Origin: a virus
Taxonomy: Duplodnaviria > Heunggongvirae > Uroviricota > Caudoviricetes
Direction: 5' to 3' (one strand)
Virus record (IMG/VR): IMGVR_UViG_3300027963_000034
Coordinates: 32,001 to 96,000 of that record
Length of the DNA: 64,000 bases
Below are positions 3,559 to 46,611 of the stretch, piece by piece. Positions within the stretch are counted from its first letter, which is position 1. Every line of letters starts with the position of its first letter. The translations under genes were made by a program, and so were the position numbers. A model generated the notes under the pieces. The model had not been told where the DNA came from, made no database searches, and was given only the letters and a program-made list of their open reading frames with translations.

Positions 3559-3561
3559 AAC

Positions 3562-4416: not shown

Positions 4417-4723
4417 TCAATTGCTTTTTTATAGGCCTTGACTTTTTATGTAGTTCTTCGTTTTCTTTTGTAAGATATTCTACTTTAACACTCAATGCCG
4501 CTACTTCTTTTGTAAGAGCTAAAATCATATTACGAAGGTCATCTTTCTCTTTTCCAGCTGCTTCAAGTAATCCTTCTAATTTAGAAATACGGTCTTTGCA
4601 ATCGTGTCTTACAAAGTCTTCATCCTTTTCTCTTGCCAATGCTCTTTTTTCGTAATATCTCCAAGCTCCAGTTCCACCTAGGACAGTTATTGCGGTGATT
4701 AATACAGAATATAAATTTTCCAT
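4409..4723 (-). CDS. Membrane-anchored coiled-coil protein
   Basis: N-terminal hydrophobic helix (LYSVLITAITVLGGTGAW) followed by a heptad-rich region. Confidence 0.6.
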   Translation of the reverse strand: MENLYSVLITAITVLGGTGAWRYYEKRALAREKDEDFVRHDCKDRISKLEGLLEAAGKEKDDLRNMILALTKEVAALSVKVEYLTKENEELHKKSRPIKKQLNG

Positions 4724-6459: not shown

Positions 6460-6460
6460 T

Positions 6461-7156: not shown

Positions 7157-7157
7157 C

Positions 7158-12766: not shown

Positions 12767-13457
12767 TTTCGTTTAATATTATTTCTTCTAATTTATATGG
12801 TATCAAAGAAAAATTCAATGGTTCCACTTTTACAACATTTTTACTTATGTTTAATGATTCAAACCAATTAAAGTGATTTGTTTCACCACCAGGAATTATC
12901 TTTGTACCATTTATATAATCAATTGTGTATTTAAAAAAATTCATATAAATTGATTTCATTCCACTTGCAGTACCTACCATAATATTATCATCAAATTTCA
13001 TATGTCCTTGCCAATGGTTTCCAGCTGCATATAATAAATTTGCATCCTTATCATTTTTTATAAAGTCTATAAACATATCAACATTATGTAACTCTATATC
13101 CATTCTTGCTTTTATAATCAAATCATAATCTGTTTTCAATGATTCCGAAAAAATTGTAATAGTTTGAAAACAACTTGTTACTGCATATGCCTGTTGCATT
13201 GCATGATATGATTGTGTTTCATATGTCACATCCGTTGGTACTAAATCAATAAATTTATGTGGATTTGATACTTTAATTTCTTTTGGTTGAAAGTCTTCAA
13301 TCAATGCATTTATATCAATAAAATTTCTACCTCTATCTTCACCATACCAAGTTTGAATAAACACATCCGCATTTAATTCTTTAATTACTTTTTGCCATTG
13401 GTCTAATACCTTTTTATACTTTCTAGGTTGACCATAAAAACATATTGCTACTCTCAT
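12756..13457 (-). CDS. Putative glycosyltransferase-like protein
   Basis: MRVAICFYGQPR, DVFIQTW, YDLIIKARMD, DD. Confidence 0.55.
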   Translation of the reverse strand: MRVAICFYGQPRKYKKVLDQWQKVIKELNADVFIQTWYGEDRGRNFIDINALIEDFQPKEIKVSNPHKFIDLVPTDVTYETQSYHAMQQAYAVTSCFQTITIFSESLKTDYDLIIKARMDIELHNVDMFIDFIKNDKDANLLYAAGNHWQGHMKFDDNIMVGTASGMKSIYMNFFKYTIDYINGTKIIPGGETNHFNWFESLNISKNVVKVEPLNFSLIPYKLEEIILNENEK

Positions 13458-13888
13458 TTATAATCGTTTATATAATCCGAACAAATTCCGATACATTCAT
13501 CTAAATTATCATTATGAATTTCAGGCATTACTGCGATACTTCCTTTAATTGGTTGTTTACCAGGATATGCCCAAACTACGTTCATTGACGTAAGTGTTAA
13601 TGCATCTTCTTCATGCCAAAAATAATGATAACTATTAAGCATATTAAACCATTCCACTGCTTCTATATTTTTACAATGAATCCACAAATGTTGTATTCTT
13701 TCACTAAACCAATGTTGTGAAACACCATATTGTGGTTTATCGTGTCCTAAAAATAAAACACCTTCAATCATCCATACATCTATTTCAACATCAAATCCTT
13801 CCGATATTGCTTTGTCGATGTATGCTGGTTCGTTTTCATATGATTCAAACTTTCCGTTTGTATTTCCTCTGTGTGATATTAATATCAT
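13454..13888 (-). CDS. Small GDPD/PLC-like phosphodiesterase-fold protein
   Basis: ISHRGN, EN, DVEID, LGHD, HCKN, GICSD. Confidence 0.7.
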   Translation of the reverse strand: MILISHRGNTNGKFESYENEPAYIDKAISEGFDVEIDVWMIEGVLFLGHDKPQYGVSQHWFSERIQHLWIHCKNIEAVEWFNMLNSYHYFWHEEDALTLTSMNVVWAYPGKQPIKGSIAVMPEIHNDNLDECIGICSDYINDYK

Positions 13889-24229: not shown

Positions 24230-25413
24230 AAATATTTTTTTAGGTATTCCAATTCTTTTGGTATATGTGTTTTATTAAAATCATTTCCAAAATTCATATA
24301 AGTTTTAAACATATCTTTTGAGTTTTTTGGATGATTTATATTTGTTTTTAAATATATCACAAAATTTTTAATTTCTGTTTTTAAATCATTATAATTAAAT
24401 GCTTTATCAAGTCTTGTATATAATTCTATTATATCAGTTTTTTCTTCAAAATTAGAAACATTTAACCAATACGGGTGTTCTGCAAATCCAAATCTAATTT
24501 GAGAATCCGAATCAATATATCCCATATGATACATAGATTTTCTAAAATTTGGAAAATCAAAACAATTTAATATAGAACAAGTATATTGAAATACGTGTTT
24601 AATATTTCCATATTTATTTTTGGCTTCGTTTAATAAATTCATATTATTTATGAAATTATTTGTATTAAACCCCGTTCTTACAAATTCACCAACATTACCT
24701 ATACCATCGCAAGATATTCCAAAATTTATACTTTTAAATTGAGAAAAAAATTCAAATATATCTCTATTATTAAATTTAACTAAACTGAAATTTGTATTTA
24801 AATGTATTTCTATTTTATCTTTATTGTCCAGTTTAGAAAGAAATTCATACATCTCTTTCATATATAAAGGTTCTCCACCTGCAAAATATATGTGTTCTAA
24901 ACTTTTTATATATCGTTTATCAATATCAAAATTTGTTATGTTTATTTCATTTTTATTAGAATCAATCGCGATTCCCATAAATTTTTTAAAAGCATTTTGT
25001 TCTTCAATCCAAGTTGAAGAATATTCTGATGTGCAACTTCTACATTTAAAATTACAAATATTGGAAGGTCGTAAATCTAGTCTAACAAAATCAGGATAAT
25101 TATATCCATCCTTTCTTGTTTTATTTTTGTATTTTTGAATTAGATGAGAATAATACCCATTCCACTTTGTTCTATAACTTTCAGCCCCCTCATCATCCAT
25201 TTTATAACAAACATCACAAAATTTTGGTTTATCACCATTTAACATATCCAATCGTATTTGCTTATATTCATCTGAATTAAAGGCATCCGATATTGAATCG
25301 TTTTCCAAATTTGTATTTTCTAAAAAAGTTTGTGAATAACAACAAACTTTTAATTTTTTATCTGGATAGGCATTAATATGTAAAAATGGTAATATACAAA
25401 ATGTATCTGACAT
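24226..25413 (-). CDS. Radical SAM protein with N-terminal SPASM/twitch-like domain
   Basis: CNFKCRSC (CxxxCxxC), AGGEP, NTN, S.DG; N-terminal CILPF..CC..C..C. Confidence 0.88.
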   Translation of the reverse strand: MSDTFCILPFLHINAYPDKKLKVCCYSQTFLENTNLENDSISDAFNSDEYKQIRLDMLNGDKPKFCDVCYKMDDEGAESYRTKWNGYYSHLIQKYKNKTRKDGYNYPDFVRLDLRPSNICNFKCRSCTSEYSSTWIEEQNAFKKFMGIAIDSNKNEINITNFDIDKRYIKSLEHIYFAGGEPLYMKEMYEFLSKLDNKDKIEIHLNTNFSLVKFNNRDIFEFFSQFKSINFGISCDGIGNVGEFVRTGFNTNNFINNMNLLNEAKNKYGNIKHVFQYTCSILNCFDFPNFRKSMYHMGYIDSDSQIRFGFAEHPYWLNVSNFEEKTDIIELYTRLDKAFNYNDLKTEIKNFVIYLKTNINHPKNSKDMFKTYMNFGNDFNKTHIPKELEYLKKYL

Positions 25414-25865
25414 TAAATTTTTAATTTCAATTTTGTAATTTGTTTTTTATCTACTCCGTATTTTTCACAAACATATTTTAAATATTCTCTACCTTCTCTT
25501 GTTGCGTATAATACTTCTATATAATCGTTTGCTTGTCTTTCCGAACAATCATATTCTTTTTTTAATAACTCTACAATAAATTCTTCGTATTTTTCTTCTC
25601 CCTTACCTTTGATGTATTTTAGATAATGTTTTCCTTTTGGAATTACACTAATATATAACTTATACATTTCCTTTGGTTGTAAAGTTTGTGTCAAAGGTAA
25701 TAGAGTAGCAATCAATTCCACCCATTCAGGCTTCATTGAAAGAAAACGATTAATCATAAAGTTACTCCAAGATTTGATATCTTCTTCTGAAAGTTTATCA
25801 AAATACTTCGGGTCTTGCTCCGTAGTTATTGCGTTTATATGGTCAAATAACTTTTTGGCAGCCAT
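25413..25865 (-). CDS. Clamp loader small subunit (gp62-like)
   Basis: LFDHINAI, FMINRFLSM, KYIK pattern; next to the gp44-like gene. Confidence 0.65.
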   Translation of the reverse strand: MAAKKLFDHINAITTEQDPKYFDKLSEEDIKSWSNFMINRFLSMKPEWVELIATLLPLTQTLQPKEMYKLYISVIPKGKHYLKYIKGKGEEKYEEFIVELLKKEYDCSERQANDYIEVLYATREGREYLKYVCEKYGVDKKQITKLKLKI

Positions 25866-26107
25866 TATTCTATAATTTTTGTTTCTTGTAATTCCTGTGG
25901 AAGTAACTCATTTAAAGGTTTTCCACAACTCGCACATACATACAATTCAATCGGCATTACCGAATCTTTTGGTGCGCCCGTTAATAATCTACTAATCTTT
26001 TTGAATCTATAACCTGGTAAGAAAATTTTTCCACCACATTCACAATCCATATCTCTCGCGTCATTTAAATTAAAATTCGGCGGTAATTGGTTCATTTGTT
26101 GTTCCAT
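25865..26107 (-). CDS. Small Zn-ribbon protein
   Basis: CECG...CASCG. Confidence 0.65.
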   Translation of the reverse strand: MEQQMNQLPPNFNLNDARDMDCECGGKIFLPGYRFKKISRLLTGAPKDSVMPIELYVCASCGKPLNELLPQELQETKIIE

Positions 26108-27054
26108 TATTTTATAATATTTAAAATTTGAATAATTGTACTCATAAATACGATTTCTTTATCTACTACTAAAGCATCTTTGGATAATCCATCGGCTATT
26201 GTCATAATTGTATTTGCTACATTTCCCGTTGCATATTCATCAACCTTATCGTATAACATTGTATACATTTCTGAATAATCATTTAATCTGTTATCTGCAA
26301 CAGCTTGTCTTATTTTTAAGAAAAGATTGCGTTTATCATCTTGTGATTTTAAAAGTTCTATTAACTTTGATTGAAAATTAGATTCAACCATTATTTTATG
26401 GTCTACTTTTAATTCTCCTTTTGCTGATTGTAATTGGCAAGTATTAAGTATTCTTCTAATATCTGGGTAATAAGAACTAATTACATCTGCAACATTTTTA
26501 ATATCATATTTGATATTTTCATAATCTAATATCTTTGCTACTTGAATTGCTACATCCTTTTTAGTTGGAGGTGTGATTGCAAATGATTGGCACCTACTTT
26601 GTATCGGGTCAATAATCTTCTCAATGTAATTACAAGTCAAAATGAATCTACAATGTTTAGAGAATGTTTCCATTAAGTTACGAAGGATTGCCTGTGCGTT
26701 TGGGGTCATATAATCAAACTCATCTAAAATGATAATTTTGAAACCTGCAAAACCAACTGATGATGCGAAATTTTTAACTTTTGTTCTGACGGTATCCACA
26801 TTATTTTCATCTGATGCATTGATAATCATACTATCACATTTAATTGTATTTACTATTAGTTTAGCAAGTGTGGTCTTACCAGTGCCTGCTTTACCATAAA
26901 ACAACAAATGGGGAATATCATTTGTATCTAAATATTGTTGAATAGTTTCTTTTACCACTTCATTTCCAACATAATCTGCTAAAGTTTGTGGGCGGTATTT
27001 TTCCACCCACAAGCTATGCTCTTTTTTATTATTTTCGTTTGCGAAAAAACTCAT
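26107..27054 (-). CDS. Clamp loader AAA+ subunit (gp44/RFC-small-like)
   Basis: WVEKYRP, GKAGTGKT, INASD, LDEFD, SRC; start moved to ATG 27054. Confidence 0.95.
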   Translation of the reverse strand: MSFFANENNKKEHSLWVEKYRPQTLADYVGNEVVKETIQQYLDTNDIPHLLFYGKAGTGKTTLAKLIVNTIKCDSMIINASDENNVDTVRTKVKNFASSVGFAGFKIIILDEFDYMTPNAQAILRNLMETFSKHCRFILTCNYIEKIIDPIQSRCQSFAITPPTKKDVAIQVAKILDYENIKYDIKNVADVISSYYPDIRRILNTCQLQSAKGELKVDHKIMVESNFQSKLIELLKSQDDKRNLFLKIRQAVADNRLNDYSEMYTMLYDKVDEYATGNVANTIMTIADGLSKDALVVDKEIVFMSTIIQILNIIK

Positions 27055-27055
27055 A

Positions 27056-27478
27056 TTATATATATTTTCCAGTTGAGCCGAATCCACCTTCGCCTCTTTC
27101 TGTATTAGATAATTCTTCTACCTCTTCAAAATCAATTTCAGGATAAGGTATAATCATAAGTTGTGCACCTCTTTCTCCGATATTGTATTTATTTAAACCA
27201 GATTTTTTAAATGTAGCTTGTAACTCACCTCTATATCCACTATCAATTACACCAACGGAATTACTAAGTGTTAAATCGGTTTTACGAATGGAAGATCGTG
27301 GAAATACTAATCCTACAAATCCTTTTGGAATTTCAATTGCAATACCAAATCCATATGTAATATCATATGTATTTTCTAATTTGATATCCGTTATAACCAA
27401 ATCCATACCCGCATCTCCATCTTTTGCATATGATGGAATTATTGCGTTTTTATTAAGCTTCTTTATTTTTACTTTCAT
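27056..27478 (-). CDS. dut: Trimeric dUTPase
   Basis: AGMDL, PRSS, GVIDSGYRGE, RGAQ, RGEGGFGSTG; start moved to ATG 27478. Confidence 0.95.
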   Translation of the reverse strand: MKVKIKKLNKNAIIPSYAKDGDAGMDLVITDIKLENTYDITYGFGIAIEIPKGFVGLVFPRSSIRKTDLTLSNSVGVIDSGYRGELQATFKKSGLNKYNIGERGAQLMIIPYPEIDFEEVEELSNTERGEGGFGSTGKYI

Positions 27479-28539: not shown

Positions 28540-31095
28540 TTAAAAACTAAAAAACTTTTTTGCAGTTTGAGCTTCAGTTGATGCTTTTTCCCATTTTAAT
28601 GCGGTATAAAAATCATCTAACTTATTTTCTAATTCTGCTTTAAATATCATATCTCTATCAATATATTTTTCAATAAAATCCATAATCTCATTAGGGTCAT
28701 TATAATCTTTAAAAGCCAACCCTTCTAATCCTAATGGGTTATTTCTTAAATATACCCACTTAACTTTATCACCATCTCTAATTGGTTCATTCTTAAATGG
28801 ACAATTAAAGAATTTTAATAATCGGTTATATGCAATTCCGGCTTTAACATGGGCAGGTGTTCCTTTCTCAAATAACCCAACAGGCTTACCTCTTTCCCAT
28901 TTACCATTATCATACTTACTTAATTCTTTGATTGCTCCACTCTTTGCTATTTTGTTTACAGGCAAAGTAATCATACTCTTTTTGAACTCTAATAATTTTG
29001 TATCAACATATTCATTATCTTTACCCATAAGAATATCTTTCAACATACCACTCATATAATCTTGGAATGCTTTGGGAAATGATGAACGAACTACATCTAA
29101 ACCTTTAACATCTAACTTATCACATTTGATGCCATTCTTTAATACCATCCATTGTGCATATCTTTTCTTTGCTACCCAAAATCCCGCTTTACTGATATAT
29201 TCCTTTTTGATTTCAAATCTATGTTTTTCTTTTGGTATAAAAAAGAATCTTTCAGCAAGTATATCATAAAATTTATTTAAAAAAGATTGAGTTTCTTCTG
29301 CTATTATATTAACTTCCTGTGCCATTCTTTCTTCATCAAATTCTTTATATTCTGGGTATCTATGCTTTACCAATGGTTCTGCCATCATATAAATTGAATC
29401 AGTGTCAATATACACATTGTAATCTTCTTTTGTATTTAATTCTTTCCAATATTTTATATTAGCCATTTCAGCCGTTTTTTTAATAACCGTCTGACCGGTA
29501 ATAGTAACTGCTTCGGCGTTATCTATATCATAAAAACGAAATGCCGGTAAACCTAACACACCATACATTGAGTTCAATAGAATTTTTTGTACCAATTGTC
29601 TTTTTGCGTAAAAATCATATTTTTCAGTATCACCTGCTTCTCCGTATTTTTTTTCTAACTTACGGAATTCAACTCTTTGTTTAAACCATGTATCTAAAAT
29701 ATCTGCAATCAATCCGGGTTTGTCTTGTGTATAAAGAACTCCGTTTGCAGCTACACCCAAATTACTATCTTTAATAACTTCTTTTAGTTCCTGAGTCGTA
29801 TATTCGTATTTATCACCATCCTTGCCAATTAACTTATAAGTTGTATCTAATCCTTTGATGTTTGCCTCTGCGTCCCAATTTTCAATCTTACCAACCTTTG
29901 TTTCAGGTGAGATGTTTAGAGTCATAATAATTGATGGATATAGTGATGTTAAATCCAAATCATAAATCCAATCATACTTTCCAACAATCGGTTCTTTTAC
30001 ATATGCACCGATAAACTTCTCCTGGTCGTTATCTCTCAATGCTTGCATTCTTTCTTTTCTATCCTTTGGTTTATTTGGGGCTACTAATCCTTTTTTCTTG
30101 AGATATGCTAAACAAGCTCCTTCTAAATATTTTGAAGAGTATATATAATCCTCGTATGGTACAAATCCGGCGTGACAAATCGCTCTACACAAATCTACGA
30201 ATTGAAGTTTTTCATCCATTGCTACAACTAAGTCTACATCGACAATATTATATTCAATAAACTTTTCTAAGTCATTTTCAAACAAATCATCCAAACTTCC
30301 TTCATACTCAATCTTACCTCTACCCAATTCTTTTGTTGCGATGTGGTTCAATGTATATGAACTTTCTAAACCATAATTATAGTTTTTATATAAGTTGATA
30401 TAATCTAAAATAGATACACCACCAAAACTCCATTTATTTCTATAAGGTGAATAAAAGGTTTGACCTATTGGAGATAATCTTTTTGCATGACCTTCGCCAC
30501 ATACATTTTTGATACGATTGTAAAGATATGGGATATCAAAGAAATCTATATTCCATCCTGTAAGAATAGACGGGTTAATTTCTTCGTAATAGTTAAGAAA
30601 TGCAAGTAATAAATTTTTCTCGTTATCGTAAATGTGAACAGCAACTTCTCTCCCATCTTTACTAAATGTTTTTCCATTATTTTTAATTTTTTTAGTTTTA
30701 TCTAAAACAAATACATCAAATAATTTTGTAGCCCCATCGTGAGATGCGATGGCTGTTATTTCATTTTCTGCTTTTTCGGTACTTGGTAGTCCTGATATCA
30801 TTTCTACCTCAATATCAAAAGTCATTACTCTATGACCTGTTGATGGTAAATCCGAATCATACATATCAACTAATACTCTCGTTGTTTCAGGAACATCAGA
30901 TTCAAATAAATCTTCTGCGTCATCTTTTTCCCATTTACTAATTCTAGTTAAACGGTCACCATTCATTGAAAGGTGTTGACCCGATTGGTCTTTCTTATAC
31001 GCATACTTTCGGTATGGTAATGTAAAATATCCCTTCGTGTCGTCCCATAAATGAATTAAATTCTTCTGCCTCTCGTAAAATATATTTTGATACAT
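28540..31095 (-). CDS. Family B DNA polymerase (gp43-like)
   Basis: FDIE (ExoI), GWN..FD, DLTSLYPS, KILLNSMYG, YIDTDS, KKRY. Confidence 0.98.
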   Translation of the reverse strand: MYQNIFYERQKNLIHLWDDTKGYFTLPYRKYAYKKDQSGQHLSMNGDRLTRISKWEKDDAEDLFESDVPETTRVLVDMYDSDLPSTGHRVMTFDIEVEMISGLPSTEKAENEITAIASHDGATKLFDVFVLDKTKKIKNNGKTFSKDGREVAVHIYDNEKNLLLAFLNYYEEINPSILTGWNIDFFDIPYLYNRIKNVCGEGHAKRLSPIGQTFYSPYRNKWSFGGVSILDYINLYKNYNYGLESSYTLNHIATKELGRGKIEYEGSLDDLFENDLEKFIEYNIVDVDLVVAMDEKLQFVDLCRAICHAGFVPYEDYIYSSKYLEGACLAYLKKKGLVAPNKPKDRKERMQALRDNDQEKFIGAYVKEPIVGKYDWIYDLDLTSLYPSIIMTLNISPETKVGKIENWDAEANIKGLDTTYKLIGKDGDKYEYTTQELKEVIKDSNLGVAANGVLYTQDKPGLIADILDTWFKQRVEFRKLEKKYGEAGDTEKYDFYAKRQLVQKILLNSMYGVLGLPAFRFYDIDNAEAVTITGQTVIKKTAEMANIKYWKELNTKEDYNVYIDTDSIYMMAEPLVKHRYPEYKEFDEERMAQEVNIIAEETQSFLNKFYDILAERFFFIPKEKHRFEIKKEYISKAGFWVAKKRYAQWMVLKNGIKCDKLDVKGLDVVRSSFPKAFQDYMSGMLKDILMGKDNEYVDTKLLEFKKSMITLPVNKIAKSGAIKELSKYDNGKWERGKPVGLFEKGTPAHVKAGIAYNRLLKFFNCPFKNEPIRDGDKVKWVYLRNNPLGLEGLAFKDYNDPNEIMDFIEKYIDRDMIFKAELENKLDDFYTALKWEKASTEAQTAKKFFSF

Positions 31096-31103: not shown

Positions 31104-32675
31104 TTATGGTTTATAAAATATAAAGATTGGTTCGTATTTATACGATTGCCCTTCTATCTTCATACTATTCTTTGCTTTTGATAAATCCATCCCCGTCATT
31201 GGACTCATTGTCATTCTTAATTTTCCTTTATATTCACATCCTAATTCAGTTAGGATATCGATACTATCTTGCTCCAAAGTAAAAAATTTATCAGGTCCTA
31301 CTTTTATATCAGCAATATTCCAGCAAATGTATCTATCATTTTTAAGATATTCAAATGCGGTTGTTAGAGTAGGTCTTAAAAAGCCATCTCTCCAACTTTC
31401 ATATGAATTAAATTTCTTAAAAGATTGCGTTTCATCATCCGAATATCTTTCTCTATCAAAATATGGTGGTGAAGTAAATACAAAATCTAATTTACCTTTA
31501 TACTTTTGGAATCTTTCATCTAAATGAATAATTTCCGAACCTGTTGTAAAAATTTCATAACTATTTGCATGTCCCCAAAATGGGTTTGATGCTCCAGGTA
31601 CTTTATTATTAAAAAATTCTGCAAGATATTCGTATCTAGTTTTACCAATTTCAGGTATTTGATTTTCTGTATTAGGGTCATTTCCTATGTAATGTATATT
31701 CCTATCATCGACACTTAATGCACCTAAAATTCTCCCACCCCATCCAGCCGATGGGTCGTAAATATTAATCTGCTTTTGGTCTTTAATATGATTTGTAAAT
31801 CTTTGATAAAGATATTTTGCAGTTAATGGTGGAAAATTTACTGCTGCTTGCGTTCCCATACCAATACGGAATGCCGCAGTAGCTTCAGGAAATATAGTTT
31901 GTCCTAATGGGTAGATTTTAATTTGAATTGGTTGTTTTGTAATCTCATATAAATTATCAATATTTTCACCCCAATCTGCGGTTTTAAGTGACGATATATT
32001 TTCATATTTTAATATTCCCGCTTTATAAAGGTCTTTAACTTCTTGCGCGGTTATTGGTGGTGAAGGAACTTTACTATCAGCCTGTGATAAACAAAATGAA
32101 TGTCCTTCCAAATTATCACCTTCTACCCACTTTTCAATCCACTCTTTACCACTTTGTATATGTGAATTATGAAATTCAGGATTACCCAAATGTAATGTTT
32201 TAGAAAAACGATACATACCATCTTGCCTAGTTAACCTATTCATTTGTTTGATAAATTCGGGAAGATACGCATCATTCGAAAACACATCGTAAATAGATGG
32301 TTTTGGTTTATCGTAAGTAGAACCACCGATTCCTGTTTTATACATTGCAGGAAAGAATTGATTTACAGGAGTAGCAAATTTATTAAAGTTAAAGATGACT
32401 TCATTTCCTTCGTCATCTTTTTCTTCAAATTCATTTACCTTATAAGTTTGCAGTCTAGAAAATTGTTCAATCATTTCACTTTCATCAACCCCAATTCTTG
32501 GAGGTGCTCCGGTTTCATTCCATTTTCTAACTGCTAATTCACGAAAGAATGCCACCCACTCTCCAAACTTTGGAAATGGCATTTTAAGAACATCCTCGTA
32601 TTTTAAGTTTACTTCTGGAGAGTAAATCCAATCGTTCTTTTCGTAAAAATATTTTTTAGGATAATTAAAACTCAT
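31104..32675 (-). CDS. SAM-dependent DNA amino-methyltransferase-like protein 1
   Basis: Motif I YDPSAGWGGR, motif IV FTSPPYF, NIAD, EPIF. Confidence 0.8.
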   Translation of the reverse strand: MSFNYPKKYFYEKNDWIYSPEVNLKYEDVLKMPFPKFGEWVAFFRELAVRKWNETGAPPRIGVDESEMIEQFSRLQTYKVNEFEEKDDEGNEVIFNFNKFATPVNQFFPAMYKTGIGGSTYDKPKPSIYDVFSNDAYLPEFIKQMNRLTRQDGMYRFSKTLHLGNPEFHNSHIQSGKEWIEKWVEGDNLEGHSFCLSQADSKVPSPPITAQEVKDLYKAGILKYENISSLKTADWGENIDNLYEITKQPIQIKIYPLGQTIFPEATAAFRIGMGTQAAVNFPPLTAKYLYQRFTNHIKDQKQINIYDPSAGWGGRILGALSVDDRNIHYIGNDPNTENQIPEIGKTRYEYLAEFFNNKVPGASNPFWGHANSYEIFTTGSEIIHLDERFQKYKGKLDFVFTSPPYFDRERYSDDETQSFKKFNSYESWRDGFLRPTLTTAFEYLKNDRYICWNIADIKVGPDKFFTLEQDSIDILTELGCEYKGKLRMTMSPMTGMDLSKAKNSMKIEGQSYKYEPIFIFYKP

Positions 32676-33454: not shown

Positions 33455-34672
33455 TTATATTTTTTTCCAAATCCAAATGGGTTCACCAAATGCATTATTT
33501 TTATTGAGTTCTGTTTTTTCTTTAAGTTCTTCTGCAAAATATTCAGATTTAGCATTTCCTGCACCGCCGGAATTAAACCTTTTTGTCATTTCCATTCCAA
33601 TACAACCCATATATTCTAATCCCTCTGATTTAATAAAGTCATTCATAGCATTTACAATATCAACATACCCCTTATCTGGTGCTGAAAATACATCTGCAAT
33701 ATTAACGGCTAATAACCCACCCTTCTTTAAGGTAGGGATTATTTTTTTAATTGTTTTATGTAGGAAATTAGTATTCCAGTCATCTATCTTTTTATAGCGT
33801 AAATAACTTTGAGTATCATGTGTGGAATACTTTTCAGTATTGAAGTATGGAGGTGAAGTGAAGATTGTATCAAAAAAGTTTTCATATTTGGAATAATCCA
33901 CATCTTCTGCCGGTAACTTTATTAGTTCCACAGTTTTAGGATTTTCAAAAAATGTTTTGTGTTTCTGATAAAATTCTATTTGGTTTTCATAATTTGGGTG
34001 ATTATCTAAATTAGGGTCAATGCCCACATAATGTTTACCCGTTTCACTTGCAAAGAACCCACATAACCTATCACCCCAACCTGCGGAAAAATCTAATACA
34101 TTCTCACTCTGAAATCTGTCATAAAATGCTTTAGCGATTACAGGTTTAAATTGGGATGCTACATACTTTCTTAATGTAGTAGCCATCTTTAGTGTTTCCT
34201 TATTTACATCAGTTAGGACTTGTTCCAATGTGAAGAATGCCCGAACTATGGTTTTTATACCATTAACTGTCTGCCATGTCTTCCAACCTGATGGTGTTCT
34301 TGACCAATCTACCTTCCATCGATTTTCTATGTGGAATGGATTAGATGCGTTATTACCAACATTCGTTCTTTTAAAATAGTAATTACTACTATCAAATGTA
34401 AGTGGATATGTAGATTCCCTTTCATTACGCGGAAACCATTCTCCTTCCACTAAAATATCCGGCCACCAAGTACCCTTTAACTTTTTATATGCATCAATAG
34501 TTTCTTGTTCTGTAATAATAGGAATAGGTGGTGGATAAGTATGTAATACTTCTGATAATGTTTCTACTATCTCTTCCTTTTCAAATGTATTTAGTATATG
34601 TTTCCACTCCTCCTTATCAATATTGATATAGGGGGTCATTCCATAAAACTTTTTGAAATATTCTTTTATCAT
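33455..34672 (-). CDS. DNA amino-methyltransferase-like protein 2
   Basis: SQFKP..AK, LDFSAGWGDR, GIDP, TSPPYF, NIAD, EPIW; start moved to ATG 34672. Confidence 0.8.
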   Translation of the reverse strand: MIKEYFKKFYGMTPYINIDKEEWKHILNTFEKEEIVETLSEVLHTYPPPIPIITEQETIDAYKKLKGTWWPDILVEGEWFPRNERESTYPLTFDSSNYYFKRTNVGNNASNPFHIENRWKVDWSRTPSGWKTWQTVNGIKTIVRAFFTLEQVLTDVNKETLKMATTLRKYVASQFKPVIAKAFYDRFQSENVLDFSAGWGDRLCGFFASETGKHYVGIDPNLDNHPNYENQIEFYQKHKTFFENPKTVELIKLPAEDVDYSKYENFFDTIFTSPPYFNTEKYSTHDTQSYLRYKKIDDWNTNFLHKTIKKIIPTLKKGGLLAVNIADVFSAPDKGYVDIVNAMNDFIKSEGLEYMGCIGMEMTKRFNSGGAGNAKSEYFAEELKEKTELNKNNAFGEPIWIWKKI

Positions 34673-34676
34673 TAAA

Positions 34677-35906
34677 TTATATTTTTCTCCAAATCCAAAC
34701 CGGTTCACAAAATGTTTTATCTGCAGCTTCTCTTGCTTTTTCTAAAGCCTCTTCGGTATATCTTCCTTCATCACCTTCTATTATTGAGGCAGCTCCTGCA
34801 CTACCAGGTCTTTTGGCCATTTCCATACCCAAACATCCTTCATATTCAGCGCCTAATGTTGAAATAAAATCATTCATTGGGTTACATATTTCTTTATATC
34901 CCTTACCATCTCCTTGTGAACTAGCGTATACATCTGCTATATTAATGGCTAGATATCCTCCTTTCTTGATTGTTGGCCAAACATTTGAAATTGCTTTATG
35001 TAAAAATAATTTATTCCAATCATCTATATTTTTATATCTTACCCAACTTTGAGTATCATCATATGAGTATCGTTCTACATTAAAATATGGAGGTGAACTG
35101 AATACAATATCAAAATGCTCATTATACATTGATAAATCGGCATCTTCCGCCGGTGATTCTATAAAATCAGCTTTCTTTTCAGTTTCAAAAAATCCATTAT
35201 GTTTTGTATAAAACTCAGCCTGTTGTTTATAAATTGGATGATTTTCTTTTCTAGGGTCTATCCCAACATAGTGTTTGCCCTTTTCACTGGCAAAAAACCC
35301 ACACATCCTATCTCCCCAACCTGCCGATATGTCTAATACATTTTCACATTCTAAATAATCATATAAAGCTTTCGCAACATTAGGTTTAAATTGAGAACAT
35401 ATATACTTTCTCAAACTTAAACATACTCTCAAAGCTGCTTTATCTATTTTATCAAATTTAAGAGTATATAATCCACCCATTAAAGTTGTCATGAATTCTT
35501 TACTTTCCCAAGTTCTTTTAGGACCTGGAGAAACTGTCCCATCAACACTCCAACGATTTGCTTGTTGAAAAAAATTAGATGCTTCATTTCCAGTATTTAA
35601 TCTTCTAACATATTGTTGTTTACCTCTAAATGATAGAGGATAATTACTTTCTGATGCTTTTCTTGGAAACCATTCACCTTCGGTAAATAATTCATGCCAT
35701 CTCGTTCCTTTTAATTTAAGATATTCTTTTCTGGCTTCATCCTCGGTTATTTCAGCATATGGTAAAGAATATTCCATACAAACATCAGATAGTGAATCTT
35801 TTACATCTTCCCTATTAAATGTTTCTTTTATATATGACCACTCACTCTCATTTATATGAAGGTATGGTGTCATATTTTTAAATTTATCAAAATATTCTAA
35901 ATACAT
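34677..35906 (-). CDS. DNA amino-methyltransferase-like protein 3 (tandem paralogue of protein 2)
   Basis: SQFKP..AK, LDISAGWGDR, GIDP, SSPPYF, NIAD, EPVW. Confidence 0.8.
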   Translation of the reverse strand: MYLEYFDKFKNMTPYLHINESEWSYIKETFNREDVKDSLSDVCMEYSLPYAEITEDEARKEYLKLKGTRWHELFTEGEWFPRKASESNYPLSFRGKQQYVRRLNTGNEASNFFQQANRWSVDGTVSPGPKRTWESKEFMTTLMGGLYTLKFDKIDKAALRVCLSLRKYICSQFKPNVAKALYDYLECENVLDISAGWGDRMCGFFASEKGKHYVGIDPRKENHPIYKQQAEFYTKHNGFFETEKKADFIESPAEDADLSMYNEHFDIVFSSPPYFNVERYSYDDTQSWVRYKNIDDWNKLFLHKAISNVWPTIKKGGYLAINIADVYASSQGDGKGYKEICNPMNDFISTLGAEYEGCLGMEMAKRPGSAGAASIIEGDEGRYTEEALEKAREAADKTFCEPVWIWRKI

Positions 35907-36418
35907 ACTGTCTCAATATTTTTATCAGCAACCAATCTTAATCTAAAAACTATTCCAGGAATAACTCCATCTTTTTTACTTGTCCAAAATATATCAGAAT
36001 CTTTTACAAATCCATTTCTATAATAGAAATTAACTGCTTTATCATTATACTTCCTAACCGTCAAAAACAAATTTTCTGCATGTTGTGATTTACAATATTG
36101 TATAAAATCATTTAAAACTATTTTAGCGTTTCCATTGTGTTGGTCTATATTCGCAATTTGATGCAATATATAATCTCCTTTCTTTTTATAAGTAGTAGCG
36201 TTTCTACTCATTTTACCATTACTACCATATCTACCAAAGGTAACCACAACACCATCTTGTAGTATTAATCCACCTTTTTCAATATATTTTTCCAGCTTAA
36301 AACTTTGTTTATACAAGTGTGGAAATATTTCTGGATACAAATCAATAATTGTAGAGGCTTGATTTAATGCCTCTATCATTTCAGTTGTACCTTTTTCTGC
36401 TTTTATAAAATTAAGCAT
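35897..36418 (-). CDS. GNAT-family acyltransferase
   Basis: LHQIA....NGNA and LTVR..N.KA..FY.RNGF motifs; start moved to ATG 36418. Confidence 0.8.
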   Translation of the reverse strand: MLNFIKAEKGTTEMIEALNQASTIIDLYPEIFPHLYKQSFKLEKYIEKGGLILQDGVVVTFGRYGSNGKMSRNATTYKKKGDYILHQIANIDQHNGNAKIVLNDFIQYCKSQHAENLFLTVRKYNDKAVNFYYRNGFVKDSDIFWTSKKDGVIPGIVFRLRLVADKNIETVCI

Positions 36419-37868
36419 ATTCAAAAAATTTATTTAAGTTTAATTTGTCTTTATACAAATATAAGGAATTTAATTGAGATTTCAAAATATCTTTTCTAGC
36501 TTCCATCATATCACCAGTTCTTGCACCTTTTGCAAAAAATACTTTTGGTCTATATAATAATTCATCGGAAATCTCACCTTTGAATGCTGCTCTTAATAAT
36601 GGTTTCATATGACCATTTTCTTTCTGATATAAAGGTGGAATGTTTAAAGTATATTCTACAAATGGTCTCCAACTATATGGTGTACGAACCTCAACAGTCC
36701 CACCCCACATGATAGATTGATTTGTAGTTAAGAAATTTGTTTTATGAACATCTTCTACTAATTTTCTTCTAGCTTTATCATAATCTTCCGGTCTCCAATG
36801 GAACGCTTGAATATGTCCGTAACTTCCCCAAATTTCATCGGATAAATCACCGCTAAATACAACTTTGAATCCTAATTCATTTATTTTTTTACCCAATGCA
36901 ATTTGAGCTATAGCAGAACCTACATTTTGCCAACGAGATTGTTCAATAACATAAAGAGTTTCATCAATCGAATCTAATACATCTTGTTCGGTTAGTATAA
37001 TTTCATGCAATTTTACACCGAATTCTTTTGCAGCAATTCTGGCGTATTTAATGTCGTCGTTCTTTGTATCACCATCTCCCATTGAAACCACAAATGCTTC
37101 AATATTAGGGTTTATTTTTGAAAGTATATAAGTTGTTATCACCGAATCAATACCCCCACTTAAAATGGTGCAAATTGGGACATCAGATATCATTTTAACT
37201 TTAACCGCTTCCTCTAATAATTTTCTTATATTCTTAACAATAGTGTCTCTATCATCATTTATAATTTCATTTGGAAGTTTATAATAAGTTTTAATTGAAT
37301 GTTCTAATGTTTTATAATTGTATTCTATATAAGTTCCAGGATAAACTGCTTTAACTTGTTTTTCATACAATTCCGATATTGGTAATCCTTTCTTTTCCGA
37401 ACAAAACACCAATTTACCAGTATTATCAATTGCATACCATAATGGTAATTCTCCAACATAATCTCTAACAACAAATACTTTATTAATCTTACTATCAACT
37501 ATACAAAATGAAAACATACCATCCAATAGTTCAAATGATTTAGTTCCCAATTCACAATACGCATTTAATATAATTTCCGTATCTGATTTTGTTATAAATT
37601 TTGTTTTTAGTGATTTTTTTAATTCAGTTGTTTCGGTACTATCCCAAAGTTCACCATTATAAACAATACAAACGGTTTTATCTTCGTTCCACATTGGTTG
37701 ATTTGCAGCCGAAGATAAGTCCTGTATTGATAATCTATTATGTCCAACAAAGACACTATCTATTTCATCTACAATAGAAGCATCTCTACCTCTATGAATT
37801 ATTTTATTTAATTGGGTATGGGTTTGCTCAAAAGAAGTAAACCAATTACCACCTATTATTCCACACAT
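36411..37868 (-). CDS. Asparagine synthetase B-like glutamine amidotransferase/ATP-dependent amide ligase
   Basis: Ntn Cys2 (MCGI), HRG.D, RLSI.D, NGE, SDTE; SGGIDS PP-loop; variant SGDLSDE; EVR.P. Confidence 0.9.
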   Translation of the reverse strand: MCGIIGGNWFTSFEQTHTQLNKIIHRGRDASIVDEIDSVFVGHNRLSIQDLSSAANQPMWNEDKTVCIVYNGELWDSTETTELKKSLKTKFITKSDTEIILNAYCELGTKSFELLDGMFSFCIVDSKINKVFVVRDYVGELPLWYAIDNTGKLVFCSEKKGLPISELYEKQVKAVYPGTYIEYNYKTLEHSIKTYYKLPNEIINDDRDTIVKNIRKLLEEAVKVKMISDVPICTILSGGIDSVITTYILSKINPNIEAFVVSMGDGDTKNDDIKYARIAAKEFGVKLHEIILTEQDVLDSIDETLYVIEQSRWQNVGSAIAQIALGKKINELGFKVVFSGDLSDEIWGSYGHIQAFHWRPEDYDKARRKLVEDVHKTNFLTTNQSIMWGGTVEVRTPYSWRPFVEYTLNIPPLYQKENGHMKPLLRAAFKGEISDELLYRPKVFFAKGARTGDMMEARKDILKSQLNSLYLYKDKLNLNKFFEYA

Positions 37869-38167: not shown

Positions 38168-38336
38168 TTTCTTTTTGTTTTATATTTTTATTTTCTTTTA
38201 TATGTTTTGGTTCATAAGGACAATGACGGCACTTATTACCACAACAATAACCTCTTGCCATATGATACTCTGGTGTAAATACCACTTTACCATTTTCCAA
38301 ATAGTATAATGTTTCATCTTTATTATTTAACTTCAC
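38145..38336 (-). CDS. Small Cys-rich protein (DUF5522-like); start uncertain
   Basis: YY.ENG.VVFT..YH..RGYCCGNKCRHCPY. Confidence 0.7.
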   Translation of the reverse strand: MKLNNKDETLYYLENGKVVFTPEYHMARGYCCGNKCRHCPYEPKHIKENKNIKQKENGNSQKV

Positions 38337-40179
38337 ACGCACCTCCAGCACAAGCTACTTCTCCTGATAAATCGGTGTTATCTTCAAGTTCAATAACTTT
38401 ACTTAAGTCAACATCATTTAATGTTTTCATTAGTTCATCATACTTTTCTTTTGTACAATCTTCAAATGGTGCTTGAATGTAAGTTCCACCGTCGTAAGGT
38501 AATACCGAAAGTCCGTTGTAATATTCTTTATTTTCCCACATCCACGCGCCAACTGCATCCCATTCATGTTCTCTAATAGAAATAGTTGCAGATACATTAT
38601 GAGAGTTATTTCCAGTTCTATGACCTGGTTTAATCCATTCACCATGTACTCTTTTAACTCTTTCCAATAATTGGATAGGTGATTCGGTTCTAAAAATTGC
38701 GTTATCTGGTGCTTTTTGTGGAATACCAATTACTGCCGTATCATGTGGTCTAAAATATTCATCTTCTACTAATTCTGGATGATTTAATAATAAGTGAGAA
38801 TATATTGATTCATTTTTACCAACTCTAACTCTTCTAATATAAAAATCATTATGCCAAGCGTGAATACCACTACTAGTCCCCAATGTTAAAGATGTAGTTC
38901 CAGCTGGTTTAACTGTCGTAGTTCTTGCGGAATGGTTAATTCCCATTATATCCGCTAATCTTTTATTTTCTTCTTTAACTACCTTTGCTGCATCTTTCAT
39001 ATTTAATTTCAATACTGCGCCGCTTCCGATGCCTGTCATAGATACACCAATAAGTGCATCCTTTTCAGTTGTTCTTTGCCAGATTGGACGAAGGTAATGG
39101 AAATCGGTATAACCTGCTTGTAATGTTCCGATGAATGATGCTGCTTTAACTCTTGCATTCAAATCATCCTGGTCAACTACATCACTTACATTCACTTCAC
39201 ATAAGTTACAAAATTGGAAAGGTCTTAATGCAATCTCACAACAAGGATTAGTTCCCCAATCTTTATCATTTGATAAATAGATACCAGGTTCACCTGCACC
39301 ACTTGCTTCAATTCGTTTCCAAAGGTCTAAAAAATATGTTTTTGTAATTTTATGTCTCATCAAAACTGCTGAATTATTTGCTCTACCTCTTTGTGGATTT
39401 GTTTCCCACCATGCACCACTCTTACAACTAATCATTTGTTCGTCATTTGCAGAGAACAATGAAATTAATGCAGCTCTACGGATACCACCTGCTAATACTG
39501 CATCTGCAATATGACAAATGATATCATGCACTTCAATCGGTTTTAATTTATCACCGTCTTTGTGTGAATCAAATATACCTTCAATCTTAATCAAGCATTC
39601 TTTTAATGGTTGAGGTCCTGGTGCTTTACCACCTGATGTAATCAATCTTGCACCCTTTGCTCTAATATCTCTAAAATCAAATTGAGGTTTGCTCCCGCCA
39701 AAGAAATACGCTTTAATCAATACCGAAACTGCATCAGCCCATCCTTCGATAGAATCTCCAATAAGGAATCTTCTTGTTTTATCTGGATTTGGTTTTCTAA
39801 TTTCAGGAAGTGCATCAACGTGATGTTTTTGTACTGAATAACCAACACCTGTTCCGCCTAAAAGTAAGAACATGATTTCAGAGAATACTCTCCAATCATC
39901 GGCAGGTGCAAATGCACAATTGTAAATTCTATTTGGACTAATTTCAATTGGTTTACCTGCAAACTGCATTGAACGCATTGATGGTAATACCTTTTTATCA
40001 TATACAAATTTATAATTCTCTCTAATTTCTTCTTCTAATTGTGGGTACTTTTTAATATGCATATCCATATTACGGGTAACCAACTCTTCCCATGTTTCTC
40101 TTCTTTTTAATTCCGGCCTGAATTTCGCGTACTTCATATAGACCGTAATGTCAGATAAAATTCTTTGTGAAATGTCCAT
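38323..40179 (-). CDS. nrdJ: Class II (adenosylcobalamin-dependent) ribonucleotide reductase
   Basis: KYA...RRETW.E, YNC, TNPCCEI, FCNL, TVKPAGT, C-terminal ACAGGACE; no small subunit nearby. Confidence 0.9.
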   Translation of the reverse strand: MDISQRILSDITVYMKYAKFRPELKRRETWEELVTRNMDMHIKKYPQLEEEIRENYKFVYDKKVLPSMRSMQFAGKPIEISPNRIYNCAFAPADDWRVFSEIMFLLLGGTGVGYSVQKHHVDALPEIRKPNPDKTRRFLIGDSIEGWADAVSVLIKAYFFGGSKPQFDFRDIRAKGARLITSGGKAPGPQPLKECLIKIEGIFDSHKDGDKLKPIEVHDIICHIADAVLAGGIRRAALISLFSANDEQMISCKSGAWWETNPQRGRANNSAVLMRHKITKTYFLDLWKRIEASGAGEPGIYLSNDKDWGTNPCCEIALRPFQFCNLCEVNVSDVVDQDDLNARVKAASFIGTLQAGYTDFHYLRPIWQRTTEKDALIGVSMTGIGSGAVLKLNMKDAAKVVKEENKRLADIMGINHSARTTTVKPAGTTSLTLGTSSGIHAWHNDFYIRRVRVGKNESIYSHLLLNHPELVEDEYFRPHDTAVIGIPQKAPDNAIFRTESPIQLLERVKRVHGEWIKPGHRTGNNSHNVSATISIREHEWDAVGAWMWENKEYYNGLSVLPYDGGTYIQAPFEDCTKEKYDELMKTLNDVDLSKVIELEDNTDLSGEVACAGGACEVK

Positions 40180-42267: not shown

Positions 42268-43326
42268 TTAAAATTTATTTATATGTGAAAATGTTGATTG
42301 TAACCAATCATTTATATCTTTAAACCCATCTAAAACTCCATTTTTTAAACTCGTTTTTAAGAAACTTTGTTTATCAAACTTTGCAGTTGGTTCGTTATAT
42401 CTATCCATAATTTTCATTCGAAGATTACCACTAAATGTTGGTTCTGCTAACTGCATCAATTTACGATTTCTTTCGCAAATTTCCAAATTATTTAAGAATA
42501 ATTCATGTGCTTTTGATTTTTTAGGTAATGTATTTACATAATTAACCATATCGGTAGTATCAACTAATTGGTGTTCTACTAACATTGGAAATGCTTTTAT
42601 AATTGATTTAATACCTAACCCGTTAATACCTGCAACATTGTCGGATTTATCTCCGTCAATCATTCTGAAATTTATAAAATTATGTGGATGAATACCAAAT
42701 TCCTCAACTACTTCTGGAATATTATATATTTTCTTCTTTGATGGTGAATATACACTTACATCTTTATTTACTAATTGAAGAAAATCCTTATCAGAGCTCA
42801 TTATTACAACCTTTTCGTTTTCTTGTCGTAGGGTTGTAGCAATATAAGCCATAACATCGTCTGCTTCAATTCCATCATAAATCATAATGGAAACGGGTAA
42901 TGATGAAAGTAGTTCACCCAATGCAGACATTTGTCTTTTCATTGAGGCACTCTCTTCTTCTGGATTCATTTCAATAGTTGCAGCTCGATTCAATCTCATT
43001 TTGATTTTGTTCTTACCTCTCTCCGATTTGTAACCAGAATATATGTCTTGTCTGCTTTTGTTTCCACCCTTACCATCGAATACTATTACAACTCGTGTTG
43101 GGTTAATTGTACGGATTGCAAAGCCGATACTTTTTAAAGTACCGACTATGCCTCCAATATGGTCACCATTATCGTTAAGATTTGGTGCTGTTGACCAAGA
43201 ACGAATGAAGGTATTAAGACCATCAATAACTAAAGTTTTTGAATTTCTTTGCAAATCTCCAAATCCTTTATGTTCTTCATCTATTTGTTTTAGTATATCT
43301 AAATACTTCTTATTAATCTGACTCAT
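42268..43326 (-). CDS. 5'-3' exonuclease / RNase H (T4 Rnh/FEN-like)
   Basis: IDG.N, VFDG, YK..R, EADD, SSDKD, GDKSDN..G. Confidence 0.93.
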   Translation of the reverse strand: MSQINKKYLDILKQIDEEHKGFGDLQRNSKTLVIDGLNTFIRSWSTAPNLNDNGDHIGGIVGTLKSIGFAIRTINPTRVVIVFDGKGGNKSRQDIYSGYKSERGKNKIKMRLNRAATIEMNPEEESASMKRQMSALGELLSSLPVSIMIYDGIEADDVMAYIATTLRQENEKVVIMSSDKDFLQLVNKDVSVYSPSKKKIYNIPEVVEEFGIHPHNFINFRMIDGDKSDNVAGINGLGIKSIIKAFPMLVEHQLVDTTDMVNYVNTLPKKSKAHELFLNNLEICERNRKLMQLAEPTFSGNLRMKIMDRYNEPTAKFDKQSFLKTSLKNGVLDGFKDINDWLQSTFSHINKF

Positions 43327-44432: not shown

Positions 44433-45281
44433 TTAATTGTTAAATAAATCATCAAATGCTGATGCTACATCATCCTTTGCTTTTGGAGCTTCATCCTTTT
44501 CCCAAGGTAAGTCACCAATTTCCTGAGTACCACCTAAATCAGTTGATACCGATGATTGCTTTTGTGCAACTGGTTGTGCTTTTGGTTTCGGTGCTTCTAA
44601 TTCTTCAACAATATCATCGCTTCCAATTGCTGCTGATGGGTTTAACCAATTTTCTAAAACTGACTTTAATTCTGCGTAAGATAACTCCTGATATAATTCA
44701 GTAATTTCTTTTTGACCATCTAACAATTGTTGGATAGCTTCTGGAGAATCTGCTAATTTAGATGTTGCAGGTTTAACTCTGATTGTTGTTGTTGGATAAG
44801 ATGCGTTAGACTCTTCTGCTGACATTACTTCCAATACGATATCTCTACCTGTGTTTGGGTCTGTAATATCTCCGTAATCAGGGTCTGCAATATATCCTAA
44901 AATATCTTGATAAACTGTCTTACCGAATCCCCAGAATTTTACTCCTTCCGATTCTTTACCTCTTACTATAACTGGTACAAAAGTTCTTAACTTTGGTTCC
45001 ATTTTCTTACCTGCTTTCCAATCATCGGTATCACCTGTTCTTTTAAGTTTTTCTGCAAACTCAACGATAGGGTCAGGTCTACCAAATGACATAGGACTCA
45101 AATAAGTTTTGTTGTTAATGTTGTAGTGAAAGTAAAGTTCAATGAAAGGAATGTCTTTGTTGAACTTGTAAGGAACGATTCTCACTTGAGATTTTCCGTT
45201 AGCCGGTTTGTAGATTGAATCCGACTTTTTAGTGTTGTTTTGTAAAGAGCTAAATCTCTTTAATGCCAATGAAATGTCCAT
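44433..45281 (-). CDS. Single-stranded DNA-binding protein (gp32-like)
   Basis: VRIVP, FHY, DPI, FWGFGK.VY, DITD...GRD, acidic FDDLF tail. Confidence 0.88.
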   Translation of the reverse strand: MDISLALKRFSSLQNNTKKSDSIYKPANGKSQVRIVPYKFNKDIPFIELYFHYNINNKTYLSPMSFGRPDPIVEFAEKLKRTGDTDDWKAGKKMEPKLRTFVPVIVRGKESEGVKFWGFGKTVYQDILGYIADPDYGDITDPNTGRDIVLEVMSAEESNASYPTTTIRVKPATSKLADSPEAIQQLLDGQKEITELYQELSYAELKSVLENWLNPSAAIGSDDIVEELEAPKPKAQPVAQKQSSVSTDLGGTQEIGDLPWEKDEAPKAKDDVASAFDDLFNN

Positions 45282-46308: not shown

Positions 46309-46611
46309 TTATTTTTTCCATATTTGATACCATTTTTTCTTTTTAACATCTGGTTTAGCAAATGGTTGGGTATTATCCCATACATTCACTATGCCACCAT
46401 ATCTAACCATCATCATTTGACAAAATAGCTGATGATATTCGGGTGGTATTTTATCAAAGTCAGCTTTAATTGATATATCCAAATTTACACTTTTGCCATC
46501 TTCAACCAATAATTTTAGTTGGTCTCTCATTTCAATAATCGTACTAGATTTCATTGTTAGATAACTTGTATCCCCAATGTAATATTCTCCTTCTTTTTGT
46601 TTTGGTGCCAT
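46309..46611 (-). CDS. Hypothetical protein
   Basis: Co-oriented ORF; KKKWYQIWK terminus. Confidence 0.6.
   Translation of the reverse strand: MAPKQKEGEYYIGDTSYLTMKSSTIIEMRDQLKLLVEDGKSVNLDISIKADFDKIPPEYHQLFCQMMMVRYGGIVNVWDNTQPFAKPDVKKKKWYQIWKK

Follow-up and report, generated by a model that had tools for sequence, protein, structure and literature searches.

Why should an amidotransferase of the asparagine synthetase (AsnB) family share its short C-terminal peptide with the DNA polymerase of the phage that encodes it? The question is raised by a tailed phage (Caudoviricetes) of which a stretch of 64,000 nucleotides, here called the window, was analyzed (positions 32,001 to 96,000 of IMG/VR record IMGVR_UViG_3300027963_000034). 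Its AsnB-like protein of 485 amino acids (aa) ends KLNLNKFFEYA (residues 475-485 at 36414-36446, stop codon at 36411-36413), with L478-N-K-F-F482 at 36423-36437, and its family B DNA polymerase (PolB) ends AQTAKKFFSF; both ends, as given in a preliminary description, were verified in the sequence. That description saw a terminal [L/A]xKFF in both proteins. The motif is indeed shared but it is near-terminal, with three residues following FF in the AsnB-like protein and two in PolB. A contig from a second sample spans 35678-37101, including the tail, without any difference from the window. Comparing sequences, we consider it probable that the AsnB-like enzyme is a clamp-tethered, glutamine-dependent amidotransferase serving a new DNA hypermodification; physical binding of its tail to the clamp appears very probable, and DNA quite probably is its substrate. 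The earlier proposal that the amidotransferase rides the phage clamp is supported by conservation of the tail, by its switch together with the PolB tail, by its presence on known DNA-acting enzymes and by a weakly supportive docking prediction.

The tail is an appendage to the AsnB core. Tail-less homologues stop at a helix matching residues 459-472, and their core ends near residue 472, also in the Cmo-cluster enzyme of phage TurkishDelight. A hydrophobic-x-x-aromatic-aromatic peptide is found near the terminus and outside the catalytic core, and the glutamine at position 1 of the canonical PCNA-interacting peptide (PIP) box (QxxLxxFF) is lacking, this position being occupied by Lys475 in the window protein and by various residues in its homologues. 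K-F-[F/W] at no more than five residues from the C-terminus is present in 54 of 54 distinct full-length close phage homologues (65-96% identity). Among 120 database matches, 119 show it too, the sole exception being a partial protein. K480 and F481 are invariant and residue 482 is F or W in the 54 homologues, and residues 450-476 have a mean modal frequency of 0.68. In contrast, none of 134 distant AsnB-family representatives ends in [KQE]F[FW], and any FF-like or LF-like end was seen in two of them. Conservation in phage versus other homologues, by which the preliminary description wanted its proposal judged, hence came out in its favor. Chance would place the pattern [KQE]F[FW] this close to the C-terminus, that is at no more than five residues from it, in about 0.3% of open reading frames (ORFs). 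Among the 988 ORFs of four complete IMG/VR relatives used for whole-genome counts (G001, G002, G003 and G004 with 200, 280, 307 and 201 ORFs, respectively), it occurs in PolB (four), AsnB (three), a 100-aa family with a WYQFW end (two) and nothing else. When a six-position profile made from PolB tails only was applied, AsnB ranked second of 200 in G001, of 280 in G002, of 307 in G003 and of 81 in the window, and third of 201 in G004. By these comparisons, the likeness of the AsnB tail to the PolB tail appears far above chance.

The last AsnB codons overlap the start codon of a gene for a GNAT acyltransferase, KFF lying some 10-16 nt upstream of this ATG, and conservation might be a by-product of that overlap at the DNA or RNA level. 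However, codons vary among the homologues while residues hold, lysine being encoded by AAA (16) or AAG (18), phenylalanine by TTT (24) or TTC (10), and the second aromatic residue by TTT (21), TTC (3) or TGG (10). Together with the variable spacing from the tail to the next ATG, this synonymous variation argues that selection maintains the peptide itself rather than the start region with which its codons overlap. The overlap accounts for the residues past FF, which are variable, and not for KFF, and other tightly packed genes end differently. The translation-start explanation was rejected as largely refuted by codon variation, and we consider it extremely improbable.

Which other proteins carry the tail? 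Among 1558 distinct ORFs from window-lineage loci, the pattern was found in nine families: PolB (84), AsnB (55), the adjoining GNAT (20), two N6/N4 DNA methyltransferase families (8 and 2), Mom-like proteins (7), GIY-YIG-like proteins (2), an ABC-ATPase-like protein (1) and the WYQFW protein (4). It was never present on ribonucleotide reductase (RNR), thioredoxin, dUTPase, helicase, RecA or clamp loaders of the window lineage. The carriers of established function all act on DNA.

When the divergent AsnB of locus L080 (42%) served as the query, a second phage lineage emerged, whose clamps are of gp45 type (PF09116). The PolB of these phages ends TLEDFF or SLDNFF, their AsnB has an end of likewise acidic type, PLESFF or SLEEFM, and the SPPY methyltransferase beside AsnB, a homologue of the window methyltransferase MT3, has an appended SLEGFF-type tail that window MT3 lacks. 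Of two profiles made from PolB tails only, the window type was preferred by 20 of 22 window-lineage AsnB tails versus 0 of 10 gp45-lineage tails. The ranking of the complete gp45-type genome G006 was headed by PolB, the SPPY methyltransferase, AsnB and another methyltransferase, with a further methyltransferase in sixth place and the late sigma factor, a known type of clamp client (PMC2988020), in eighth place of 180. On a quick tree, L080 AsnB falls within a clade associated with a dehydrogenase and a pyridoxal phosphate (PLP) enzyme, yet it has a basic TLKKF end as in its own PolB. The GNAT-associated AsnB of L131, with an acidic tail, is sister to the window clade (97% by the Shimodaira-Hasegawa-like approximate likelihood ratio test, quick tree), and the L131 contig is without polB. 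Three further searches gave little: homologue P0122 retrieved no viral contigs, so that its TLEDLF (T4-type) tail is unpaired with a polymerase, P0124 had no real match among GTDB genomes, and L165 matched only itself. On few independent events, the placements of L080 and L131 suggest that the tail tracks the replisome rather than enzyme ancestry.

Both a clamp and a clamp loader seem to be encoded in the window, the loader clearly and the clamp by weak PCNA matches, synteny and a confident predicted fold. When the clamp family profile was run against the PDB, the sole match was a sliding clamp (E 0.16); PCNA_N is found in 19-29% of members of the Atlas neighbours of the clamp, and the clamp chains in the prediction of a three-copy complex had a predicted local distance difference test score (pLDDT) of 91-92. 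The preliminary description had suggested a prediction of the clamp trimer with the AsnB tail. With AsnB residues 450-485 it gave 0.43 versus 0.01 for the best control, and 0.00 when an unrelated protein took the place of the clamp; the runs shared at least 85% of contacts, and the partner pLDDT was 60-67. Of the calibration pairs, 58 among the 80 solved ones and 2 among the 110 mismatched ones attained the mark, but those doing so at 0.60 or less were only 7 of the 80 solved pairs and both mismatches; the job, which used purpose-made alignments, is unlike the calibration pairs. The outcome gives weak support, and we take it to add a little to the evidence from comparison.

The AsnB-like protein has the features of a class II amidotransferase, that is an N-terminal nucleophile (Ntn) glutaminase domain with an N-terminal Cys, and a synthetase domain with SGGxDS, a DE pair and a C-terminal catalytic Lys. 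Its AlphaFold2 (AF2) model (pLDDT 92.9) aligns with E. coli AsnB and human ASNS at template modeling (TM) scores of 0.82-0.85 (0.82 to E. coli AsnB 1CT9). The window clade has other residues in place of the TT(I/V)RAS segment of canonical AsnB, which is present in the canonical-type homologues P0143, P0180 and P0192; the GEGxDE motif has Asp for its Glu. We take TT(I/V)RAS and this Glu to be aspartate-binding residues of AsnB; their replacement makes an acceptor other than aspartate likely. As far as its residues tell, the enzyme does not have the aspartate site of a true asparagine synthetase. A literature search on AsnB Arg-325 returned nothing relevant.

In reading order, the replication block consists of RNR, thioredoxin, AsnB-like, GNAT, MT3, MT2, clamp, MT1 and PolB genes and, further on, those for two clamp-loader subunits. 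The GNAT gene lies 80 nt or less from AsnB in 75 of 80 loci, and a second viral search, using the AsnB alignment, gave nearly the same 80 loci. Contig ends or breaks account for four of the five exceptions; in the fifth, L080, a 2-hydroxyacid dehydrogenase and a PLP enzyme stand where GNAT would follow AsnB. No annotated phage relative of the GNAT was found, and its fold search returned generic acetyltransferases only. The slot between thioredoxin and PolB holds alternatives, namely AsnB with GNAT and MT3, AsnB with dehydrogenase, PLP enzyme and MT3, or a tail-bearing Mom-like pair. An ordinary asparagine synthetase in an auxiliary role, its tail being a matter of chance, as the Joint Genome Institute (JGI) annotation and the match to TIGR01536 might suggest, is very improbable in view of the missing acceptor-site motif of canonical AsnB, the GNAT neighbour in 75 of 80 loci and a tail likeness far above chance. 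The tail could also bind the clamp while the enzyme works on a small molecule (a nucleotide, a derivative of S-adenosylmethionine (SAM) or an amino acid), concentrated at the fork in a supply complex for dNTPs or cofactors. The AsnB gene directly after RNR and thioredoxin, a fold nearest to small-molecule amidotransferases with TIGR01536 over its cut-off, and the negative net charge of the protein would suit such a role. However, RNR, thioredoxin and dUTPase never have the tail, the identified carriers act on polymeric DNA, and in TurkishDelight as well as a bacterial integrative element the related AsnB enzymes adjoin a DNA methyltransferase of C5 or SPPY type; we regard the small-molecule role as unlikely.

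A DNA-amidating relative is known. In the CmoA/CmoX/CmoY system of Synechococcus phage S-B43, the asparagine-synthetase homologue CmoY amidates carboxymethyl-cytosine in DNA in an ATP-dependent manner, and for an uncharacterised Cmo cluster with a glutaminase (glutamine-amidase) domain the use of ammonia is predicted (PMC12783734). The preliminary description had called a clamp and DNA role unexpected for the AsnB family, which was overstated given that CmoY already amidates DNA (PMC12783734). Like CmoY, the window enzyme is an asparagine-synthetase homologue beside a gene of DNA methyltransferase fold. Its closest annotated phage relative, gp124 of TurkishDelight (30%), belongs to such a glutaminase-bearing cluster; it lies between an SPPC C5-methyltransferase and a CmoA-like gene and is without the tail. 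Unlike in the Cmo system, the neighbours in the window cassette are GNAT and SPPY amino-methyltransferases, and the Cmo paper mentions no clamp (PMC12783734). CmoX (SPPC C5-methyltransferase, PF00145) was found in 0 of 5 relatives, four of them complete, and the synthase CmoA (TIGR00740) for carboxy-SAM (Cx-SAM) in none of the related genomes searched, including four complete ones; positive controls were detected in both cases, and a host CmoA is possible. Since the complete relatives yielded neither CmoX nor CmoA, membership in the Cmo pathway was rejected, and the substrate probably differs from that of Cmo.

Several points weigh against a clamp-tethered, DNA-modifying AsnB. The clamp was assigned from weak profile matches and synteny, and the passing complex prediction may reflect memory of solved PCNA-PIP or gp45-peptide structures. 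The co-variation comprises two clades and one crossover (L080), its Fisher P of 1e-6 being inflated by relatedness and hence not accepted as a true P value. The tail is missing from a clade of longer AsnB homologues (541-571 aa), also in some phages with a KFF-type PolB, and is therefore dispensable for the family. The AsnB-like protein is slightly acidic (pI 5.8), the PDB matches of MT3 are ordinary N4/N6 methyltransferases, and a known source of a DNA carboxylate was not found. Also, the AF2 model shows residues 473-482 in a helix of fair confidence (pLDDT of about 86-88 across 461-480, falling to about 60 for the last five residues), and the linker to the core is short, so that intramolecular packing is possible. 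The tail might then be a structural or membrane-targeting amphipathic helix, or bind another partner such as GNAT or MT3, its likeness to PolB being convergent, and a 100-aa protein of unassigned role has a basic-aromatic C-terminus as well. We consider this quite unlikely, for the change from basic to acidic tails coincides exactly with that of PolB, the tail is missing from homologues with an intact core and appended to unrelated folds (GNAT, methyltransferase, Mom, PolB), and the predicted complex fell to 0.00 once an unrelated protein replaced the clamp.

For the clamp-tethered amidotransferase that we prefer, the following course may be proposed. The last ten AsnB residues would be an appended, lineage-specific clamp-binding peptide (small or hydrophobic-x-K-F-F/W) that shares with the PolB tail one docking pocket on the PCNA-like clamp encoded by the phage. 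The clamp would hold the enzyme on freshly copied phage DNA, away from host DNA, and the enzyme would hydrolyse glutamine, adenylate a carboxylate on a DNA base and convert this carboxylate to the amide. As to the carboxylate, our tentative guess is that MT3 moves an amino-acid-like group (the 3-amino-3-carboxypropyl of SAM) to adenine N6 or cytosine N4, whereupon GNAT would acylate its amine and AsnB amidate its carboxyl; such an alpha-amino-acid adduct was chosen because it is the simplest chemistry giving GNAT, PLP enzyme, hydroxyacid dehydrogenase and AsnB one common substrate. Alternatively, the base might receive carboxymethyl from Cx-SAM of the host, or GNAT might deliver an aminoacyl or a dicarboxylic acyl group. 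To our knowledge, transfer of 3-amino-3-carboxypropyl has so far been known on RNA, proteins and small molecules, and a literature search for aminocarboxypropyl transfer to phage DNA found nothing relevant. Generalizing in a speculative and rather doubtful manner, large aquatic phages might possess a clamp-mounted assembly line for an undescribed DNA hypermodification, in which an SPPY enzyme puts SAM-derived 3-amino-3-carboxypropyl on an exocyclic DNA amine, swappable sets (AsnB with GNAT, AsnB with PLP enzyme and 2-hydroxyacid dehydrogenase, or PLP enzyme alone) finish the product, and a retunable tail docks the enzymes on each lineage's clamp.

The alpha-glucosyltransferase of phage T4 was reportedly found by Sommer in 2004 to bind gp45. 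A later report confirms this binding, and clamp binding is not the main determinant of the enzyme's share of modification in vivo (PMC13216743). Both cases concern a phage DNA hypermodification enzyme with a sliding clamp, the link to the clamp being a predicted one for AsnB; they differ in enzyme class and chemistry, and the accessible part of that report names no polymerase-like tail for the alpha-glucosyltransferase (PMC13216743). Since T4 clamps serve late transcription too (PMC2988020), and since clamp binding is not the main determinant for the glucosyltransferase, action of the AsnB-like enzyme on nascent DNA is something that we only infer. C-terminal clamp-binding epitopes are known from gp43, gp55 and gp33 of T4/RB69 and from PIP boxes of PCNA partners (PMC2988020, PMC6212786, PMC3201878). 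As with these, a short near-terminal hydrophobic-x-x-aromatic-aromatic peptide is common to a polymerase and other clients; in contrast to them, the window tail is basic (xKFF) and not acidic and is without the PIP glutamine, the clamp is PCNA-like with no gp45 Pfam match, and the client is an amidotransferase. In the thymidine hypermodification of phages M6, ViI and PaMx11, GNAT and PLP enzymes tailor amino-acid adducts on DNA (PMC8989533). GNAT/PLP tailoring and swappable cassettes are likenesses to these phages and to Mom of phage Mu (PMC13219725), and Mom-like genes occur in the same slot of sister phages. Searches for ADDT and HMUDK_hel in related genomes gave no match, but no positive control was detected either. 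A thymidylate-synthase-family gene was absent from four of five genomes and present once, in G003 only; the window GNAT had no match to the Mom PHROG; and a tRNA-guanine transglycosylase-family gene (PF01702) of 7-deazaguanine modification was found in 0 of 5 genomes with controls detected, although a divergent DpdA could be missed. A literature search turned up neither a clamp-binding AsnB nor a cassette of AsnB, GNAT and MT3.

The window has 31% G+C, belongs to a large tailed phage and carries nearly all of its genes on the minus strand. Freshwater and lake metagenomes were the sequencing runs matching it best, the closest annotated phage is Microcystis phage Mel-JY01 (PolB 49%, clamp 31%), and complete IMG/VR relatives have 202-274 kb. 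A promoter scan of the window gave 58 hits versus 68.9 by chance, that is at or below chance, and no promoter is claimed. RNA runs gave short pieces of 150-230 nt only, one of them across the AsnB tail, which were not counted as expression.

Features of the window around the AsnB-like gene and its tail
Feature	Position	Strand	Basis
AsnB-like C-terminal tail, residues 475-485 and stop; putative clamp-binding core L478-x-K-F-F482	36411..36446; core 36423-36437	-	Sequence, conservation, complex prediction
PolB C-terminal clamp-binding-type tail AQTAKKFFSF, core A-K-K-F-F (reference motif)	28543..28572	-	Sequence; kept in related PolBs
Glutamine-dependent amidotransferase of AsnB type (485 aa) with N-terminal Cys nucleophile, SGGxDS loop and changed acceptor site	36411..37868	-	Pfam Asn_synthase, GATase_6/7; TIGR01536 over cut-off
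GNAT acyltransferase, start overlaps AsnB stop; window copy without tail, 18/46 distinct homologues end [KQ]FF	35897..36424	-	Family matches, fold search
MT3, SPPY amino-methyltransferase fold, third cassette gene, candidate primary DNA transferase	34677..35906	-	PHROG, fold and motif; usually directly after GNAT
MT2, SPPY amino-methyltransferase paralogue, accessory	33455..34708	-	Family matches and synteny
Putative PCNA-like sliding clamp, 239 aa	32675..33394	-	PCNA_C E 3e-4; synteny with PolB and clamp loader
MT1, SPPY amino-methyltransferase paralogue, between clamp and PolB	31104..32675	-	Family matches and synteny
Family B DNA polymerase (PolB), 851 aa	28540..31095	-	Pfam and PHROG matches; Mel-JY01 at 49%
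Clamp loader subunits	25413..27087 (gp44-like 26107-27087; gp62-like 25413-25865)	-	PHROG 168 and 225, Pfam Phage_clamp_A

Variants were seen around the cassette slot. In sister phages (L238 at 466-1269, L252, L257, L259, L265, L266, L268 and L271) one or two Mom-like genes (phrog_1384) replace the AsnB cassette between thioredoxin and polB, the downstream one ending xKFW. L245 (11953-12720) and L254 (8389-9156) encode a protein of 255 aa that is distantly homologous to PLP enzymes (22% to that of L080); in L254 its gene lies directly upstream of MT3, without AsnB, as a third cassette type. An Asp/Asn beta-hydroxylase-like cupin protein (L145 at 12499-13701) lies between dehydrogenase and PLP enzyme in one cassette type, and in L080 (13309-15579) a 756-aa protein with no Pfam or PHROG match, with homologues in L159 and L163, lies between PLP enzyme and MT3. 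The longer AsnB homologues (L143-L164, L183 and L185) have another conserved extension instead of the tail, and many adjoining 2-hydroxyacid dehydrogenases end NxWF, possibly a relocated clamp motif. In an integrase-flanked bacterial island (L133 at 2391-13262, GCA_054685795.1), an SPPY and a D12 methyltransferase, an AsnB without the tail and two weakly GNAT/Fem-like genes may form a cellular DNA-modification or defence module akin to the cassette of the phages. GNAT homologues of L010 (11454-12029), L014, L035 and L037 have an extended basic-aromatic C-terminal helix in place of the KFF tail.

Other observations concern further proteins of the lineage. A 390-aa ABC-ATPase-like protein (phrog_11143; L229 at 4746-5918, and L234), inserted between polB and clamp, ends KFFG or RFFG. 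The 100-aa protein at 46309-46611 of the window has a Lys-rich WYQ(I/F)WKK end that is kept in relatives, is unlike the clamp tail and is possibly membrane-binding. At 42268-43326 and 44433-45281 the window encodes a 5'-3' exonuclease-like protein, whose end INKF is not kept in homologues, and a gp32-like single-stranded DNA-binding protein with an acidic FDDLF end as in T4 gp32. PolB of L070-L072 and L076 consists of several ORFs with inserted sequence between them, probably introns or inteins, and at the place of the single window RNR gene (38323-40179) many relatives have a pair of 337 aa and 593 aa resembling class I RNR.

If the proposed role is true, a glutamine amidotransferase of AsnB fold would be a client of the sliding clamp, and widespread freshwater and marine phages (hundreds of IMG/VR contigs) would carry a DNA base modification outside the Cmo, hydroxymethyldeoxyuridine (hmdU), Mom and deazaguanine routes. 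The tail would serve as a sequence tag which, given the resident PolB tail, flags DNA-acting proteins among unannotated phage genes. It would also make testable a standing question, namely how enzymes that modify DNA after replication get to new phage DNA ahead of nucleases and spare the host genome.

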